Virus genome (UHGV): UHGV-0170512
Strand: one strand, 5' to 3'
Origin: a virus
DNA length: 11,320 bases
Below the pieces are notes generated by a model, which worked only from the letters and a program-made list of their open reading frames with translations, had not been told where the DNA came from and did not search any database. Shown here one piece after another: positions 2,557-10,789 of this stretch (position 1 is the stretch's first letter; each line of letters starts with the position of its first letter). The position numbers and the translations under genes were made by a program.

Positions 2557-2729
2557 AAATCCTGGTATTTGTAATGACTGGCTCTTATTTCAACGCAGCC
2601 CCTTACCGCGCGCCAGATGCTCAACTTCAAGCATCAGCAATGAGATGTTTAATCTGGATTCACTCCAGAAGTGATCACCACCCTGTCTACAGAGCCAGAT
2701 GTGAAGGATGATGAGTAAAATTATCGCTA

Positions 2730-3212
2730 TCATCGAAGGCATTGCGTCCTGATATATTCCTGAAGCGTTCTCAGTGCTGTCTGGTCTCTGATGATTCCGT
2801 CCCGGATACCGAGAACGTTTCGTCCAGCAACTGGAGAGAGTTCGACGGTGGCATCATTGCCCATGCCGGAGGCGCTGGAGGTTTCGGCTGAGGATGGCAC
2901 AGGGCATTTTCCTTTGACGAGCACCCGACCACCATTATCAAGCTTGCGCCGAAGAGCATCATTTTCAGCTTTCGCATCAGCCAACTCCTTCGTGTATTTA
3001 GCATCGAGTACATCAGCAGCACGCTGGCGTTGCTGCATGTCAGTAATGGTGGCGGTCGCCTGCTTCAGCTCACTGACTTTTTTATCACGCTGTTCTTTGT
3101 AGGCGATGGCGTTATCACGGTAATGATTGACCGCCCACGACAGGCAGACGATGATGCAAATAACCAGAGCATAAATAATCGCGGCGACTCTGCTCACTGA
3201 TCTATCCCCCAA
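2730..3212 (-). CDS. Rz: Rz i-spanin (inner-membrane spanin subunit)
   Basis: 160-aa ORF; N-terminal segment [38 protein letters not shown] closely parallels lambda Rz ([39 protein letters not shown]), with coiled-coil periplasmic domain and C-terminal Cys. The true start may be a few codons inside the track ORF; it overlaps the endolysin 3' end. Confidence 0.85.
2771..2977 (-). CDS. Rz1: Rz1 o-spanin lipoprotein, embedded in the +1 frame of Rz
   Basis: Track ORF 2771..3022 trimmed to the internal start [22 protein letters not shown]; lipobox-like VVGC followed by a proline-rich segment ([11 protein letters not shown]) parallels lambda Rz1 (MLKLKMML...VVVGC...PPPPPAW). Lies entirely inside Rz. 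Confidence 0.75.
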
Positions 3213-3727
3213 CAGGCTAATGCGCTTTCCTGGTCACGACGAATAACCTGTCCATAGCAGTTATTTGAACGTATGCGGCAATCGCGCCCACCATCTTTTA
3301 TCCACCAGCGAATCGCCTCGCATGCACTCTTACGATCACCGGCATTCAGCCGCTTATAAAACGTCGACGGGAAACACTTACCGGGGCCAATGTTATAGGG
3401 ACAAAATGACGCTATACCCGCTTTCTGTGGTTCGGTCAGTGGTACTTTAATATTGCGCTCCACCCATGCCAGCGCCTTATCACGTTCAATAGCGTTAACC
3501 TGGTCGCATTTTTCCTTCGACAGCTTCATTCCCGGTATGACGGGCTTACCATCCACCATTGTGGCACCACGACAGATGGTCCATATACCGGAACCATCGC
3601 GGTATGCCGTAGTGTGGTTACCCTCTTTTTCATCCAGAAACTGGTCAAGTATTTGAGGAGCAGACGAGCCTGCAGCAATCAGCGCCAGAACGGCAGCCGA
3701 CAGGCCGTATCTGATTTTTGCGTTCAT
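3194..3727 (-). CDS. SAR endolysin (phage lysozyme, T4/P21 R-type, GH24) with N-terminal signal-anchor-release domain
   Basis: 177 aa. N-terminal hydrophobic, Gly/Ala-rich segment [16 protein letters not shown], then catalytic-triad spacing E-x8-D-x5-T in [16 protein letters not shown], parallel to the P21 R lysozyme. Sits in a lysis cassette next to a pinholin. Confidence 0.85.
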
Positions 3728-3790
3728 GGATATTTATCAGGATTTATCGGTTTCTGCCCACGGACAGGTTTATCTGTTCCGGTCAGTGAC

Positions 3791-4141
3791 TTAAGGTTGT
3801 GATTCCGGAGGAGTCTTCAGAGAACCAGTAATTCTTCCTGGTAGCTTTCCTTTGTAGGTTATCCACACATTCTGCGCATCTAAAATTACGGGGCGCTTTT
3901 CCGGCGACTGCTCATCCCCTTCACATAACCCGGCAGCAACATCCAGGAAGACCTGTCTGATGCTCCTTCTGGCTGCTGCCTCATAAAACTCCAGCGCGGC
4001 ACCTTCAACACGGTCCAGCGAGATGTCCAGGTCAAAAATTTCACCGTCAAAGCGTTTTTTGTCCCGTAACGCTACAGTTACCGTAACTTTATTCTCAAAA
4101 TTGCGGATCCCTTTCACAATCAGTTCATAGTTTTGAGTCAT
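3791..4141 (-). CDS. Hypothetical protein between holin and endolysin (YdfR/DUF1327-like by position)
   Basis: 116-aa ORF with good SD (GGAGAG, 8 nt before the ATG at 4141-4139) lying inside the 3' end of the holin gene; 4-nt gap after the holin stop. A small gene (ydfR) occupies the same holin-endolysin slot in the K-12 Qin prophage as I recall; sequence-level family membership is not verified. Confidence 0.55.
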   Translation of the reverse strand: MTQNYELIVKGIRNFENKVTVTVALRDKKRFDGEIFDLDISLDRVEGAALEFYEAAARRSIRQVFLDVAAGLCEGDEQSPEKRPVILDAQNVWITYKGKLPGRITGSLKTPPESQP

Positions 4142-4145
4142 TGAA

Positions 4146-4361
4146 TTACTCTCCCCGTGCCGCCTTACGACGGTCCTCTCTGATTTTGAAATACAGGTTA
4201 GTCAGATATGTCAGCAGCCCAAACAGCAGACTTCCCAGCACGCCTATTGCCGCCCACTGAGACGGGGAAACCCTGTCCAGCAACTGCAGGAACCAGTAGC
4301 CCGTTCCCACCGCTGACGTGGTGTATGACACACCTGTTGTGATTTTTTCCATCTGGTCCAT
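4146..4361 (-). CDS. Pinholin, phage 21 S21-like (class II holin) with dual-start motif
   Basis: Track ORF 4146..4466 trimmed to the internal start [10 protein letters not shown]. The C-terminal two thirds, [51 protein letters not shown], are near-identical to P21 S21 as I recall it; 71 aa. Met1 and Met4 (MDQM) resemble the S21 antiholin/holin dual start. Confidence 0.85.
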
Positions 4362-4510
4362 ACCCCGTCTCCCGTTATCCGGAAGCTGACAACAATAAAA
4401 AAGCCACCAGTTAACTACTGATGGCTCTGATAACTCATGCAAGCGTCTCAGACGACCCACTGACACTACCGGTGAGTTTAACGATACCTTCCATTTGACT
4501 GGCTCACTTT

Positions 4511-4869
4511 TTATGATGATGCCGGTGCATTTATCTCCAGCGCCAGACTTTCTATCTCAACGCCATACGTTGCATTTTTGGTAATATCCGTCAGCGTCAG
4601 TGCATTTAGTCCCACTGCCAGACTGTCTTTTATGGCCTGGAATGCCGGGCCAGTACGATGACGTAGTATCACTCCGGCTCAGTTGCACCACTGACCACCA
4701 CATCACCTTCTGCTGCAATCGCCTGCATCAGGGTATAAGGGGTTATGGCCACCGGACTACCAAACGGCTGCCAGCCCTCTTTCAGTTTATGTGTCAGCTT
4801 TTCCGCAAGATCTGACGGCGGCGCCGCCCTGACAACATCATAGTGTTTAAATGCCATGGTTCTTTCCAC
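4511..4869 (-). pseudogene. DUF1737-like gene (NanS-p N-terminal-domain-like), apparently frameshifted/truncated
   Basis: Track ORF 4669..4869 (66 aa, MERTMAFKHYDVVRAAPPSDLAEKL...) stops at 4669-4671; a second stop-free frame of 55 codons ([55 protein letters not shown]) opens just after a stop at 4679-4681 and runs to 4511, overlapping the first frame in 4669-4678. Consistent with a single indel. The first Met may be the third residue (MAFKHYDVV). Confidence 0.35.
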
Positions 4870-5117
4870 TATCTGAAAAATAATTCTTTAAAATACCTGA
4901 CATGTAATACAGAAAAAACACAAAACTATACCTTAAATAAAAACCTGATTATCAAGCAGATATGCATGGATAAACTACAAGACGAGATATAAACCACCCT
5001 GCATTTAAATAAACAATAAACAACATCAGAAAAATAATTCTGCTCTATGGTTTACATTCAAAAATATCATTTATACTTTTCAGGACATCACCAGCAAGGC
5101 ATAAACAAGGAAACCAA

Positions 5118-5453
5118 ATGAAGTGGATTGTGATTGATACAGTTATCCAGCCATCATGCGGAATATCTTTTTCAGTCATATGGAGTAAAATAAAATTAAT
5201 AATCTGGTATCAATCGGATGCTTTCTTACCTCCTGAAAGTATATTTACACTGACTCACACAGGCATCATGCTCAATAACAAAGTGCTACCTGTAACCATT
5301 TACAACGTAGTACCATTCAATAAAACATTCTGGAATTTAATCAAAAACAGCCAGGAATGCCCTACAAATACAGATAACGTATTGAATGAATGCTTTAATA
5401 ACCGTTGCACTCTGCAAATATGTCCTTATGGACTAAAACAACAAAGTCCATAA
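5118..5453 (+). CDS. Hypothetical 111-aa protein, AT-rich convergent moron ORF
   Basis: Only credible plus-strand ORF in the window. Strong SD AAGGAA 7 nt upstream of the ATG at 5118, preceded by a ~250 bp very AT-rich stretch (4870-5117). Visibly lower GC than the phage backbone; 5 Cys; no recognisable family. Confidence 0.45.
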
Positions 5454-5487
5454 GGAGTTTACTCACATCTGACAAAATCAATATAAA

Positions 5488-5509
5488 CAGCCCCTCCGGA
5501 GAGGGGCTG
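5488..5509 (-). terminator. GC hairpin, likely Rho-independent terminator for minus-strand transcription (possibly also stops the convergent plus-strand ORF)
   Basis: CAGCCCCTC-CGGA-GAGGGGCTG, 9-bp perfect stem; on the minus strand it is followed by TTTATATTGATTTTG. On the plus strand it sits 35 nt after the 5118..5453 stop but has no U-tract. Confidence 0.4.
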
Positions 5510-5900
5510 GAGAGTGGCGCTATGTGCCATTGCATGGTGCCGGGTGCCTCCCGGTGAATTCAGTACCAGCACCTGAATCCGCGATTATCCCATATACCTA
5601 CTCGCTGATTGCCCCTCCGCACAGGGGGATTCACCATGCCAGTTTCTTTTAACAAACTCCCCGCAAACCAGACAACAGTCAACCGCCTGAATTGTGAAGT
5701 ATTTAAAAATTTCTCCCGCTAACTGATACCCGGCTAACAGTCTGGCGTTTTCTTTTTCAGCAACGGAAAAGCAACAACCACCACACCTGCCACCAGCACA
5801 CCGTCAGCCAGCACTGACATTATCCGGCTGCTGCAATGCCATTCACAAAAACAGTAAGCAATCACTTTTTACCGTAACAGGTGATAATCCAGATATGTAT

Positions 5901-6227
5901 CTACCCCAGATGAGTAATCCGAAGTTCATCCATACCACAGGTCCTGGCTATTCTGTTGTACTCCTGAACAAGAGCAAATAATTCTGAATTAGCAACCATG
6001 AACTCATCGCTAACCCTCTGTATAGCATCACTATTCAGAATAATAACGTCTCTTCCCGAAAGACGATCAGGAGTACAAAACAAAACTGTCAAACGGCTGA
6101 AGGCCTTTGCTCGTGCTGCATTGACTATATCAATACGCTGCCTAAGGATGAAACACCCCGACGCCTCATCAATATTCACTCTACCCACACCATATGAATG
6201 ATAAATATTTAATGCTGAAAAAACCAT
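5901..6227 (-). CDS. Hypothetical protein (108 aa from the internal ATG); doubtful
   Basis: Track ORF 5901..6254 starts at TTG; the first ATG is at 6227-6225 (MVFSALNIYH...) with a weak SD. No recognisable motifs; immediately downstream of the tRNA cluster. Confidence 0.25.
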   Translation of the reverse strand: MVFSALNIYHSYGVGRVNIDEASGCFILRQRIDIVNAARAKAFSRLTVLFCTPDRLSGRDVIILNSDAIQRVSDEFMVANSELFALVQEYNRIARTCGMDELRITHLG

Positions 6228-6364
6228 TAGACCGTATAACAAACACTCAATCAATACTTAACAGAACTTTTATTTTTGACAAACATATAATATTTTCAAC
6301 AATATCCTGAGCCAGGTATATTCCAGTATAAGGCTCTGCCGGAAGGAATCTGGAAGAATGAATA

Positions 6365-6441
6365 TGGCGCGTTGTACTGGATTCGAACCACTGACCGATT
6401 GCTTAGAAGGCAATTGCTCTGTCCTGCTGAGCTAACAACGC
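6365..6441 (-). tRNA. tRNA-Arg (anticodon UCU)
   Basis: Minus strand GCGTTGTTAGCTCAGCAGGACAGAGCAATTGCCTTCTAAGCAATCGGTCAGTGGTTCGAATCCAGTACAACGCGCCA: 7-bp acceptor stem, D arm GCTC/GAGC, anticodon loop CTTCTAA, T loop TTCGAAT, encoded CCA. One G:G mismatch in the T stem. Confidence 0.8.
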
Positions 6442-6454
6442 AGAATACCGATAA

Positions 6455-6531
6455 TGGACCACCATCGGGGACCCGAACTCCGCGCAACCAGCTTCGAAAG
6501 CTGGCGCTCTTTCCTGATGAGCTAATGGCGG
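6455..6531 (-). tRNA. tRNA-Arg (anticodon UCG)
   Basis: Minus strand CCGCCATTAGCTCATCAGGAAAGAGCGCCAGCTTTCGAAGCTGGTTGCGCGGAGTTCGGGTCCCCGATGGTGGTCCA: acceptor stem with one G:U pair, perfect anticodon stem CCAGC/GCTGG, loop TTTCGAA, encoded CCA. Non-canonical T loop TTCGGGT (G at position 58) and one A:C mismatch in the T stem. Confidence 0.7.
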
Positions 6532-6538
6532 TATGTGA

Positions 6539-6614
6539 TGGTGGCCCTTGCTGGATTTGAACCAGCGACCTGGCGATTATGAGTCGCTCGCTCTCACCAC
6601 TGAGCTAAAGGGCC
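6539..6614 (-). tRNA. tRNA with CAU anticodon (Ile2-type, ileX-like, or Met)
   Basis: Minus strand GGCCCTTTAGCTCAGTGGTGAGAGCGAGCGACTCATAATCGCCAGGTCGCTGGTTCAAATCCAGCAAGGGCCACCA: perfect acceptor and T stems, anticodon loop CTCATAA; closely resembles the E. coli ileX tRNA as I recall it. Confidence 0.85.
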
Positions 6615-6736: not shown

Positions 6737-7456
6737 TTAACGAACTCTGACTACATTAATTTCAAAGTCATCAATCTGCCCGCTATTAAGTATAACGAAT
6801 GCAGAACTCCCATTACTGTACGATTTCGATAAAACCAGACGATCATCATAGCGTGCAAGAACGTAATACCAAGTATTCTCATAGTGGATCGTCTGATATT
6901 CCCTCTTAAACTGGGGTTTATACCAACCGGCAATAAGAGAGAATGTCCAGAAATAAATCATGAATCCAGCCATAATAAACTCAATTCGGTGATGGCGAAT
7001 AAAAGACACTTCCGAAAAACATTTGACTGAAATAAGTCTTCTTCCTGACCTGACAAAAAGCGTAATTGTAAAGGCAGCAATAACACAAAAAAACAGCACA
7101 TCTGGCTCAACGTGCTGATGAATTACCGAAAACTCCAGAACAGGCGGAATAAAAAGCAGCAATATTGCCAGAAAAAGTCTGATAAAACTCAAATTCTGTA
7201 TATTGTTTTTTTGTTTTATGCCTAAAAAGAAAACAATACCTACTCCCCATCCAGTAAGGAATATAACGATAACGCTCACAGCATAAAACAAACTTCGGGC
7301 CACATCATCAACGCCAACCCCGACGATCCACCATGGAAAGCCATAGTAAAAGGAAGTCCCCCATCCATAGAAATAAGCGCTTCCCCATCCAAGACAGCCC
7401 ATATAAGCAATAAAAAGTGAAGAGTTCCTCAGCAGAGTGCTGTCATCCATACCCAT
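6737..7456 (-). CDS. Uncharacterised polytopic membrane protein (about 5 predicted TM helices plus ~60-aa C-terminal soluble tail)
   Basis: 239-aa ORF, first gene after the tR'-like terminator. Successive hydrophobic, aromatic-rich segments (FIAYMGCLGWGSAYFYGWG..., LFYAVSVIVIFLTGWGVGIVFFLGI, FIRLFLAILLLFIPPVLEF, VLFFCVIAAFTITLFV, IMAGFMIYFWTFSLIAGWY). Visibly AT-rich. Likely start is the second ATG (7450), with GAGAG 6 nt upstream. Confidence 0.6.
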   Translation of the reverse strand: MGMDDSTLLRNSSLFIAYMGCLGWGSAYFYGWGTSFYYGFPWWIVGVGVDDVARSLFYAVSVIVIFLTGWGVGIVFFLGIKQKNNIQNLSFIRLFLAILLLFIPPVLEFSVIHQHVEPDVLFFCVIAAFTITLFVRSGRRLISVKCFSEVSFIRHHRIEFIMAGFMIYFWTFSLIAGWYKPQFKREYQTIHYENTWYYVLARYDDRLVLSKSYSNGSSAFVILNSGQIDDFEINVVRVR

Positions 7457-7695: not shown

Positions 7696-8517
7696 CTATC
7701 GCGTTACCCTCTTTAACTGCCGCTCCGCCCATGCCTCTTCAATGTCAAACCGAACCACCAACGTATCGTAAAAGCGTTTCACTGATTTTTTCCACGTATC
7801 AAGCGTGATAGCACTCGTCACTTTGCGTATGGCATTAAATGCCTCCGTTGATGGTAGTCTTTCATAGCCCCGACCGCCACAACGCTGGCAGTTCCTGATT
7901 ACAGGCATACCCCGTTTTTCCGACTCTTCACGATGAATGGCAACACCACGCCCACGGCAGTCTTTACAGGCAGTGGAAATCTCCCCCTTCCCTTTACATT
8001 CAGGACAAGAAACTTTCACCACCTCCCGGATTTTTTTCCATTCTTCCCAGTAAGACGGATACACACCTTTCGTACACTTTGCCCATACCGGCGGCTTACC
8101 ATCCGGATACTGGACCTTGTTTGTAAAAACTACGCTTTCAATAAATTTTTCCCCATAGCAACAAGGGCACTGCTTTTTACTCGCTGCGCTGCGGGCATAA
8201 TCCTCAAAAGCGTACGAAGCCATAATGCGCATCACTACCGGTTTTATTTCTGCCGGAAGTTTTCTTAACGCCGCCACGCGATCGCACTGACTTAATGCAT
8301 AATCTGCCAGTAATTCTGTTGCCCGCGCCCTGTCATTCATACTAATACCCATTTTCCCCAGGAACGCAGAAAATCCCATCTCAGCCCGGTTTTGTGTCAT
8401 ACCCTGCGCAGCCATCACATCAGTGATGCTCAGCGCATCTTTTGACGTCGAGACGGATGCATCAGTCAGGCCTGGCGATTTTGGGGAATAGTATTTCGGT
8501 AAATCTTCCAGTCTCAT
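7696..8517 (-). CDS. Q-like late antiterminator (QuuQ-type, zinc-finger Cys pairs)
   Basis: 273-aa ORF with several CxxC pairs (CPCC, CPEC, CKDC, CQRC); positioned after rusA and before a promoter-terminator pair and the lysis genes, the canonical Q position. ATG overlaps the rusA stop (ATGA). Confidence 0.6.
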   Translation of the reverse strand: MRLEDLPKYYSPKSPGLTDASVSTSKDALSITDVMAAQGMTQNRAEMGFSAFLGKMGISMNDRARATELLADYALSQCDRVAALRKLPAEIKPVVMRIMASYAFEDYARSAASKKQCPCCYGEKFIESVVFTNKVQYPDGKPPVWAKCTKGVYPSYWEEWKKIREVVKVSCPECKGKGEISTACKDCRGRGVAIHREESEKRGMPVIRNCQRCGGRGYERLPSTEAFNAIRKVTSAITLDTWKKSVKRFYDTLVVRFDIEEAWAERQLKRVTR

Positions 8518-10397: not shown

Positions 10398-10553
10398 TTA
10401 CTCCTCAGGTTCGTAAGCTGTGAAGACAGCGACCTCCGTCTGGCCGGTTCGGATTCGTACCTCGCAGAGGTCTTTCCTCGTTACCAGTGCCGTCACTATG
10501 ACGGTTAAACAGATGACGATCAGGGCGATTAACATCGCCTTTTGCTGCTTCAT
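10398..10553 (-). CDS. hok: Hok-family type I toxin (HokD/RelF-like), 51 aa
   Basis: Hand-translated, below the ORF-track size cutoff: MKQQKAMLIALIVICLTVIVTALVTRKDLCEVRIRTGQTEVAVFTAYEPEE. Single TM segment and Hok/Gef signature; SD AGGAGAAG 6 nt upstream of the ATG. Confidence 0.85.
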   Translation of the reverse strand: MKQQKAMLIALIVICLTVIVTALVTRKDLCEVRIRTGQTEVAVFTAYEPEE

Positions 10554-10789
10554 AGCCTGCTTCTCCTTGACCTTTCGGTCCGTAAGAGGCTAATCTCTAT
10601 GTGTCGCATAGATATGGCCTCAGATTAATGTTAAGCGTCTTGCAGGACGCGTAATGTTAACTGGGGCTTTTCTCTATCTGCCTTTTGGTGTTCATGCCTG
10701 AGGCAGATAGCCTCAAGCACCCGCAGCAATTCTACTTAACTCACGTCACCTCGCCAATATGAAATCAATCAGAAAGGTGATCCATAAAA

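Follow-up and report, generated by a model that had tools for sequence, protein, structure and literature searches.

A YdfR/DUF1327 family gene between the pinholin and endolysin genes of a phage lysis cassette, and its possible link to RNase E and RNA

The gene ydfR (b1555) of the Qin prophage of Escherichia coli K-12 lies in a lysis cassette with the order essQ (an S21-type holin), a 4-nt spacer, ydfR, rrrQ (the lysozyme) and rzpQ/rzoQ. The gene is found in Qin and in many Stx1 and Stx2c phages, always annotated as being of unknown function; ORF47 of the Stx1 phage BP-4795, together with its equivalents in H-19B and many Stx1a/Stx2c phages, holds the same position between the holin gene (S) and the endolysin gene (R). 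Min27 and most Stx2a phages have a homologous holin and an endolysin of the same family, but there the gene following the holin is the endolysin itself. The interest of the family is that of a widespread late gene wired to a ribosome binding site (RBS) in the holin, whose conserved domain was tied to RNase E by a study published in 2026, in which K-12 YdfR was reported to bind the catalytic half of RNase E and to co-purify RNA (PMC13232886).

Here we compare with these systems a window, that is, a whole stretch of 11,320 nt from the virus genome UHGV-0170512, which has the same gene order as the Qin cassette and carries all its lysis genes on the minus strand. An S21-type (class II) pinholin gene (4146-4361; 71 aa, starting with MDQMEK) is followed by a 116-aa ORF (3791-4141), with its ATG at 4141-4139 and its TAA at 3793-3791. 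The holin stop TAA (4148-4146) and a TTCA spacer (4145-4142) give a junction that reads TAA-TTCA-ATG, and the Shine-Dalgarno (SD) sequence of the ORF, GGGGAGAG (4149-4156), is located within the last holin codons (Arg-Gly-Glu). Beyond the ORF, a 63-nt spacer (3728-3790) leads to the ATG of a SAR-type endolysin of the T4-lysozyme family (3194-3727; 177 aa; phrog_7 'endolysin'), and then to the Rz i-spanin (2730-3212; PF03245, E 8e-29, phrog_13) and, inside it, the Rz1 o-spanin ORF (approximately 2771-2977), a lipoprotein with the lipobox MVVGC; the start codons of both spanins are putative. The initial annotation had described an extra gene between pinholin and endolysin, translationally nested in the holin 3' end. 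The extra gene and its SD in the holin end are confirmed by our analysis; as for the nesting, the RBS is indeed inside the holin 3' end, but the two genes do not overlap, since the ATG stands 4 nt past the holin stop.

The pairing of an S21-type pinholin with a SAR-type lysozyme, as previously proposed for this cassette, agrees with Pfam matches to both proteins: PF04971 'Bacteriophage P21 holin S' for the holin (E 9e-33), which is also assigned to phrog_20/9876 'holin', and PF00959 for the lysozyme (E 2e-24). The holin, of about 70 aa, has two predicted transmembrane domains (TMDs) and a charged C-terminal tail, and differs from the Min27 holin at 2 of 71 residues and from that of BP-4795 at 4 of 71. 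In the translated lysozyme the N-terminal segment is rich in Gly, Ala and Ser (11 of 16 residues) and an E-x8-D-x5-T motif is present, and both features fit a predicted SAR endolysin. A dual start of the holin had also been suggested from the sequence MDQM. In phage 21, an extra Lys in the longer holin product makes that product the antiholin. The window holin has both Met1 and Met4, and in this respect the suggestion holds, but the antiholin-type Lys of the MKSM start found in K-12 essQ is absent (Min27 and BP-4795 start with MYQM): the 3-residue extension is M-D-Q, with Asp and no Lys, and therefore these residues do not imply an antiholin product from the MDQM start.

The product of the 116-aa ORF matches PF07041 (DUF1327) over residues 1-112 with an E-value of 2.4e-43 and 146.7 bits, the gathering cut-off being 25 bits, and PHROG families of unknown function with E-values down to 9e-69. 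NCBIfam gave zero matches, so that across Pfam, PHROGs and NCBIfam only DUF1327 or families of unknown function were retrieved for this ORF, and no lysis-regulator family. Copies of the gene with 100% identity are annotated as 'YdfR family protein', and K-12 YdfR shares 61 of 74 residues (82%) with the window protein over residues 1-74. What had been called a YdfR-like position is hence more than positional, as the protein is a true YdfR/DUF1327 homologue. We also estimated dN/dS over the N-terminal 70 codons against five homologues, obtaining values of 0.23-0.43; by this measure the ORF is under purifying selection and is a real coding gene. It is not a new one: YdfR/DUF1327 genes of this kind have already been catalogued and are very frequent in E. 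coli prophages. Almost certainly the ORF belongs to the YdfR family and is expressed along with the other genes of the lysis cassette. For annotation, we suggest the name 'YdfR/DUF1327 family protein' and not that of a lysis protein.

Codons 1-74 (3920-4141) correspond to the conserved DUF1327 N-terminal domain, as delimited by PF07041, AF2 and the alignment. Structure prediction, which the initial annotation had put forward as a check, gave a beta-beta-beta-alpha fold for this domain (beta strands at residues 5-14, 18-27 and 34-43, helix at 50-74) with AF2 per-block pLDDT of 75-90, whereas sequence-profile searches of the PDB from two alignments yielded only chance-level matches and no informative fold. 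The conserved core of the family is a domain of about 72 aa, in which Y53 and E54 do not vary, and Y5 hardly does, across an alignment of 28 members reaching down to 24% identity. Codons 75-116 and the stop (3791-3919) encode a variable C-terminal tail, CEGDEQSPEKRPVILDAQNVWITYKGKLPGRITGSLKTPPESQP, with a pI of 8.4; residues 76-116 have pLDDT below 50 and are predicted to be disordered or are modelled with low confidence. In other family members this tail is swapped for unrelated ones or lengthened, giving forms of 176-183 aa. Thus, unlike the window protein, K-12 YdfR has 103 aa and an unrelated tail, EKLSEKVESYLQHQYSFKIENPANKHERPHHKYL, whereas BP-4795 ORF47 has the same tail type as the window but only about 63% amino-acid identity to it, with a divergent beta2-beta3 region. 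The whole protein has a pI of 5.5 and a maximum Kyte-Doolittle value of 0.71 (19-residue window), and neither a transmembrane segment nor a signal sequence was found in it; by these values it is soluble and mildly acidic, with a tail that is probably disordered.

Concerning translation signals, the computed anti-SD duplex of the ORF SD (-8.5 kcal/mol) is the strongest in the cassette and is comparable to that of the holin-embedded SD of K-12 Qin (-9.5 kcal/mol). The holin-terminal SD of Min27 is identical to that of the window, and there too the next gene begins 4 nt past the holin stop. At the window endolysin start the duplex energy is +0.3 kcal/mol, with no SD and an A/U-rich leader near the ATG, and the R start is essentially SD-less (about 0 kcal/mol) in BP-4795 and K-12 rrrQ as well. 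With the ORF present and the R leader SD-less and A/U-rich, endolysin translation is organised differently from that of ORF-less cassettes. The spacer between ORF and R measures 63 nt in 77 of 80 near-identical IMG/VR loci, as compared with 50 nt in BP-4795, while in K-12 the ydfR stop overlaps the rrrQ start (ATGA). Folding of the 63-nt spacer RNA gave no structure beyond that of shuffled sequences (z-score -0.25), and no Rfam family was matched in the cassette.

A search of the minus strand from 2600 to 5200 retrieved no sigma-70-like promoter, and between the ORF and R no terminator was found. A terminator-like hairpin followed by a T-run (4400-4428) is located 38 nt upstream of the holin ATG, suggesting that the cassette probably needs Q-modified (antiterminated) late transcription. 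Since the ORF has no promoter-like site of its own and its SD is embedded in the holin gene, it is most likely translated from the Q-dependent late transcript alongside the holin.

We then considered how widely the gene occurs. DNA matches to the ORF were found in 4275 of 5426 complete E. coli genomes (79%), and in 172 of 173 non-redundant IMG/VR loci an S21 holin gene ends exactly 4 nt upstream of it. The same spacing is seen in BP-4795, K-12 Qin, PhiR42_1 and Evi; in PhiR12_2* the spacer is of 3 nt. Whereas the cassette finds a match in approximately 426 phage records, the ORF protein is encoded in just 101. The ORF-less S-R pairs have about 87-88% nucleotide identity to the window flanks and place the R ATG where the ORF ATG stands, which agrees with the earlier description of the gene as inserted between S and R. 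Min27 and most Stx2a phages, which are collinear relatives, are without the ORF at this junction, and the direct joining of S and R in Min27 shows that this pairing of holin and endolysin can do without the ORF. The 3' junction of the gene varies among loci, as does the C-terminal tail. From these sequence comparisons, the ORF behaves as an insertion and is an optional accessory gene directly behind the S21-type pinholin in E. coli lambdoid phages. As in classical morons, it is present in some and absent from other collinear relatives; the promoter and terminator that such elements carry of their own were not found.

Our best guess on function, to which we would assign a probability of a little under 40%, is that the ORF may encode a late-expressed accessory protein binding RNase E and/or RNA. 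The experimental data come from K-12 YdfR, for which residues 1-72 were enough, in two-hybrid (BACTH) assays, for an interaction of Rne constructs with YdfR that involved the N-terminal catalytic half of RNase E, the full-length T25-YdfR fusion gave a signal with Rne(1-597) alone, and Strep-YdfR co-eluted Rne(1-598)-FLAG together with DNase-resistant nucleic acid (PMC13232886). The co-purification was carried out from crude lysate without nuclease treatment (PMC13232886), and therefore that of RNase E may be RNA-bridged. On overexpression of ydfR, few transcripts changed and growth was unaffected. By homology to the N-terminal domain of K-12 YdfR, the window protein would have RNase E, RNA or both as its binding partners in the cytoplasm at a late stage of infection, and would influence how RNA is degraded or processed (the long late transcript, for instance, or RNAs of the host), and it would not be part of the hole-forming or wall-degrading machinery. 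As read from the sequence, the ORF takes over the strong holin-embedded RBS, which in ORF-less cassettes drives the endolysin.

The same study suggested for YdfR a role like that of small proteins with which some phages target the RNA-decay machinery of the host, to the advantage of their own gene expression (PMC13232886). Phage modulators of RNase E include Dip (gp37) of phiKZ and, as cited in PMC4980113, Srd of T4 and gp0.7 of T7; the analogy with them is functional only, and no sequence or fold similarity to the ORF was detected. According to the same paper, Dip associates with the RNA-binding sites of RNase E (PMC4980113), whereas the YdfR data concern the catalytic N-terminal half. An effect of YdfR on RNase E activity is, for its part, putative. 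If the link to RNase E were true, the family would represent in temperate phages what the known RNase E modulators are in lytic ones, and it could bear on late gene expression in Stx phages, including toxin release. It should be noted that against an RNase E role stand the origin of the link, a single paper on a paralogue, the difference between the C-terminal tails of the window protein and K-12 YdfR, and the strict tie to the holin stop codon in E. coli-type phages, which a pure RNA-decay function would not obviously need.

A doubtful but not negligible explanation, among those alternative to the binding of RNase E or RNA, is that of a mobile accessory module with no connection to lysis or RNA decay, composed of the DUF1327 gene and a convergent small gene, possibly a counter-defence, exclusion or self-immunity pair, which would land as a cassette in permissive late-operon slots and which in E. 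coli would have lost the partner, with the gene fixed behind the holin. Distant standalone DUF1327 copies (Pantoea, Yersinia, Sodalis) are mostly in tail clusters and usually beside such a convergent small gene, and some distant DUF1327 genes are placed before terminase genes, away from holins. Of 8 distinct contexts outside E. coli, 7 have a small opposite-strand gene that follows the DUF1327 gene within about 45 nt, as does the E. coli phage Evi; the partners belong to the families phrog_25324, phrog_10490 and phrog_18578, the pair of DUF1327 with phrog_25324 recurs at four different sites, and in PhiR12_2* the neighbour, a phrog_2572 gene, extends into the 3' end of a long-form DUF1327 gene. 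The patchy presence of the gene among otherwise similar phages also fits a module. On the other side, the ORF and six convergent partner proteins gave no match to PADLOC defence models at E <= 0.1, the partner gene is absent from the window and from the 116-, 114- and 103-aa forms dominant in E. coli, and the promoter and terminator of classical morons are missing. In favour of the RNase E/RNA reading, the DUF1327 gene points the same way as the late phage genes on either side of it in the tail-cluster, pre-terminase and Evi loci, and the same way as the downstream holin genes in a Pantoea prophage; this co-orientation fits a late cytoplasmic function independent of lysis proteins.

It is also possible, but unlikely, that the ORF modulates the timing of lysis, either as a cytoplasmic factor binding the charged C-terminal tail of the pinholin or by tuning endolysin synthesis from the SD-less R leader. 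For the first of these, phage T4 offers a similar logic, since RIII is an antiholin directed at holin T of that phage. According to PMC9409239, RIII interacts with ribosomal protein S1, affecting the RegB endoribonuclease. RIII, the product of a lysis-inhibition locus, provides a precedent in that a phage protein of small size, soluble and cytoplasmic, is tied to the control of a holin as well as to RNA metabolism, but no homology to the ORF was detected and its target is holin T, not a pinholin. The coupling of the gene to the S21-type holin stop, its co-translation from the holin-embedded SD, the ATGA overlap of ydfR and rrrQ in K-12 and the correlation between ORF presence and an SD-less endolysin start (window, BP-4795, K-12) are all in favour of a lysis role, as is the finding, in PMC3879167, that the delta-ydfR Keio mutant was among the primary hits of an envelope-integrity (CPRG) screen. 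However, that hit is an unvalidated one and could, as we infer, have arisen because the kan cassette disturbs expression of the lysozyme gene rrrQ downstream by polarity. The obligate co-occurrence with the holin expected of known lysis regulators (T4 RI/RIII, P1 LydB, the S21-71 product) was not observed, given that homologous S-R pairs exist without the ORF and that most of the cassette-matching records do not encode its protein. Furthermore, pinholins and SAR endolysins are controlled in the membrane, whereas the protein lacks both a TMD and a signal sequence; among the PHROG, Pfam and NCBIfam families, none of the lysis category was matched by it; the genes of its distant homologues are found in tail clusters or ahead of terminase genes; ydfR overexpression had no growth phenotype; and what experimental work exists on the family points to RNase E and RNA. 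In the literature on DUF1327/YdfR and on pinholin/SAR-endolysin systems we found no lysis study of this gene. A role as lysis modulator, which the initial annotation had raised, is less favoured than the binding of RNase E or RNA.

A more ambitious proposal, which we consider improbable, joins the two functions: the DUF1327 late protein would link, via RNase E or RNA, the decay or translation of the lysis transcript to lysis itself, with, for example, the S-ORF-R message being protected or processed, or translation from the accompanying SD-less endolysin leader being enabled. Linked to it is the possibility that the domain and its convergent partner form an undescribed mobile two-gene module of Enterobacterales prophages. 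If the link between transcript and lysis were true, a new cytoplasmic, RNA-level layer of lysis control would exist in pinholin/SAR-endolysin phages, including Stx phages.

Finally, that the ORF is non-functional filler or a mis-called frame, arisen by chance or decaying in an S-R recombination hot spot, is very improbable, because against the highly mosaic 3' half of the gene, the many truncated or frameshifted versions in databases and the predicted disorder of the tail stand the dN/dS of the N-terminal domain, the Pfam match (E 2e-43), a start context strictly kept at 172 of 173 loci and the accumulation of recombinant K-12 YdfR as a protein (PMC13232886).

Among the variant forms, database proteins that resemble natural holin-YdfR fusions (for example P0017 and P0032) look like frameshifted gene calls and are not counted as proof that such fusions occur naturally. 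A long form of 176-183 aa was rejected for the window, where in-frame stops follow the ORF; such forms carry extra DNA, approximately 320-335 nt ahead of R.

The window derives from a CFT073-prophage-type lambdoid prophage. The initial annotation read its lysis genes, all on the minus strand, as an S21-type pinholin paired with a SAR endolysin, and the Pfam matches, together with the SAR-type features of the lysozyme, agree with this description. The holin (4361-4146, 71 aa, MDQMEK...KAARGE) matches PF04971 'Bacteriophage P21 holin S' (E 9e-33), the lysozyme (3727-3194, 177 aa) matches PF00959 (E 2e-24) and Rz (3212-2730), in which a lipoprotein ORF is embedded, matches PF03245. In translation the lysozyme shows an N-terminal hydrophobic stretch rich in Gly/Ala/Ser and also an E-x8-D-x5-T motif, both in keeping with a SAR endolysin. 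A terminator-like hairpin of 12 pairs, followed by TTTTATTGTTG (4428-4400, minus), lies 38 nt 5' of the holin ATG and is presumably passed by Q-modified RNA polymerase. The dual start of the holin is M-D-Q-M (4352-4361, minus), whereas K-12 essQ starts with MKSM and the Min27 and BP-4795 alleles with MYQM. The longer phage-21 holin product is an antiholin owing to the Lys of the MKSM-type start; the three-residue extension found here has Asp and no Lys.

We show that the 116-aa ORF following the holin (ATG at 4141, TAA at 3793-3791, minus) belongs to the YdfR/DUF1327 family (PF07041 DUF1327, E 2.4e-43). Codons 1-70 give a dN/dS of 0.23-0.43 (Nei-Gojobori, against the BP-4795, PhiR12_2*, K-12 Qin and Evi copies), the DNA has matches in 4275 of 5426 complete E. 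coli genomes, among them 100% identical copies bearing the RefSeq label 'YdfR family protein', and the protein is encoded in 101 phage records, among them H-19B, BP-4795, mEp460 and many Stx1a/Stx2c phages. Because of these data and of the Pfam match we consider the ORF a real gene, and a spurious reading frame is essentially excluded. The extra gene reported by the initial annotation is correctly observed but already known, since K-12 (essQ-ydfR-rrrQ) and thousands of annotated genomes show the same arrangement. The gene had also been described as nested in the holin 3' end, but its ATG follows the holin stop TAA (4148-4146) after the four bases TTCA, and only its Shine-Dalgarno (SD) sequence GGGGAGAG (4149-4156) falls inside the holin, within the final three sense codons. 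This site is indeed strong, as had been proposed, its SD/anti-SD duplex of -8.5 kcal/mol being the strongest in the cassette. No promoter-like site of the ORF's own was found on its transcript.

Using four sub-types as queries, 318 IMG/VR loci were gathered, corresponding to 181 non-redundant ones. In 172 of the 173 loci with sufficient upstream sequence the S21-type holin stop lies exactly 4 nt 5' of the DUF1327 ATG; this nearly invariant junction is a modest addition from this work. The 3' junction to the endolysin varies, from a -4 nt overlap (K-12 type) to 50 nt (BP-4795 type), 63 nt (window type; 3790-3728, minus) and, in loci with additional DNA or a gene on the other strand, 320-450 nt. 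Most of the 426 phage records matching the cassette are without the ORF, including Min27 and most Stx2a phages, and the gene is shown to be optional and dispensable for this holin/endolysin pair. The Min27 holin has an identical end (...GCACGGGGAGAGTAA) and the endolysin begins four bases later with no ORF between (L011, the Min27 locus, 1130-1150), so that the position and the ribosome-binding site used by the ORF are those that otherwise belong to the endolysin. That the ORF displaces the endolysin from the SD embedded in the holin (-8.5 kcal/mol) is likewise a modest addition. In ORF-bearing cassettes (window, BP-4795 and K-12 rrrQ) the endolysin start is essentially without an SD, at about 0 to +1 kcal/mol, and is preceded by a conserved A/U-rich leader, ...ATAAATATC(C/T)ATG. 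The two cassette types thus differ in how endolysin translation is organised, with an SD in the holin or with an SD-less leader. No significant RNA structure was found in the ORF-endolysin spacer (3728-3790).

The DUF1327 family is tiny (343 clusters at 90% identity among 5.8 billion proteins, 90 at 50% identity among 1.84 billion) and limited to Enterobacterales, with named distant members in Pantoea, Yersinia and Sodalis. Its conserved core spans about 72 residues, and in the alignment Tyr53 and Glu54 are invariant and Tyr5 nearly so. AlphaFold2, run with 28 sequences, predicts beta5-14, beta18-27, beta34-43 and a helix at 50-74 with per-block pLDDT of 75-90; residues 76-116 of the ORF fall below 50. 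No informative structural match was found among solved or predicted structures. The tail is modular: K-12 YdfR (103 aa) has a tail unrelated to that of the window protein, and other members have 114/116 aa with the window-type tail, 176/183 aa with an added coiled-coil-like extension, or the domain alone (72-76 aa). C-terminal modules are shuffled, as seen in the proteins P0024, P0018, P0086, P0104, P0153 and P0132. The extension of the 176/183-aa forms is placed after the window-type tail, while P0153 has a similar coiled-coil at the N-terminus and the window-type tail at the C-terminus. P0132 (206 aa) carries a longer K-12-type tail, so that the K-12 protein itself may be truncated. Lacking any hydrophobic segment (maximum KD19 0.71) and with a pI of 5.5, the window protein is soluble and cytoplasmic.

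The one relevant experimental paper deals with the K-12 protein (Gopel et al., RNA Biol 2026, PMC13232886). [quoted passage not shown] In the same study full-length T25-YdfR gave a positive signal with Rne(1-597), FLAG-Rne(1-598) co-eluted with Strep-YdfR from lysates, and so did large amounts of DNase-resistant nucleic acid, from which the authors suggest that YdfR may bind RNA; overexpression altered few transcripts and left growth unimpaired (PMC13232886). The Strep-YdfR/Rne(1-598) co-purification had no nuclease control, so an RNA bridge is possible. Over exactly the two-hybrid region the window protein is identical to K-12 YdfR at 61 of 74 positions (82%). We infer, with a probability of roughly 0.35-0.4, that RNase E and/or RNA is a binding target of the conserved domain late in infection. 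The ORF is wired to the holin SD, on a transcript with a terminator-like hairpin 5' of the holin and no promoter-like site of its own.

A somewhat doubtful alternative is that the gene belongs to a mobile accessory module with a convergent partner and no assigned job. Standalone domains of 72-76 aa, located by exact look-ups, occur in tail clusters of lambda-like type, where they separate gpM-like from gpL-like genes or gpL from gpK, precede gpJ, or adjoin what seems from the translation to be the C-terminus of a tape-measure protein; another gene precedes a terminase operon, and in a Pantoea prophage one lies 5' of unrelated holins. All distant loci have the DUF1327 gene co-oriented with flanking or downstream late genes. 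A small convergent gene lies within about 45 nt 3' in seven of eight distinct contexts and also in E. coli phage Evi, where the 72-aa domain occupies the S-R slot (comparison loci L013, phage Evi, 2501-3040; L097, Pantoea, 5001-5542; L099, 449-1001; L096, Yersinia, 5001-5525; L100, 705-1232; L006, 4695-5515). The partners represent at least three unrelated PHROG families with no assigned function (phrog_25324, phrog_10490, phrog_18578), and in PhiR12_2* a phrog_2572 gene overlaps the 3' end of the long-form DUF1327 gene. The pair with phrog_25324 is present at four different genomic sites, so that it behaves as a mobile two-gene element moving as a unit, again a modest addition. The window has no convergent partner gene, and neither DUF1327 nor partner proteins matched PADLOC defence models.

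The initial annotation had proposed a lysis modulator, which we consider unlikely: the strict coupling to the holin in E. coli-type phages and the SD-less endolysin wherever the ORF is present speak for it, but the gene is optional, its product is cytoplasmic in character and distant homologues occur in non-lysis contexts. No lysis study of this gene turned up in full-text literature searches. The Keio delta-ydfR strain appears, unvalidated, in the primary hit lists of an envelope-integrity CPRG screen (PMC3879167 supplement; cited in PMC13232886). K-12 ydfR (5055-5366 in L012, the K-12 locus) runs into the start of rrrQ, the lysozyme gene downstream; the hit could therefore plausibly have a trivial cause, namely polarity of the resistance cassette on rrrQ.

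Elsewhere in the window, the Q antiterminator gene occupies 7696-8517, and three tRNA genes (Arg-UCU, Arg-UCG and one with a CAU anticodon; 6365-6614, minus) lie downstream of it, an arrangement familiar from Stx-type lambdoid phages. Between Q and the holin are also a 239-aa multi-pass membrane protein and a 117-aa protein (6737-7456 and 5901-6254, minus), both without Pfam match, and an AT-rich stretch (4870-5470) bearing a 111-aa plus-strand ORF (5118-5453). The same interval, upstream of the lysis cassette, contains a full-length match to the STnc100 sRNA family (RF02076, 132 bits; 5479-5668, minus). A hok/sok-type toxin-antitoxin locus is found at 10398-10722 (minus), with a Hok-like ORF of 51 aa (10398-10553, minus) and the Rfam 'sok' match RF01794 (108 bits, 10551-10722).
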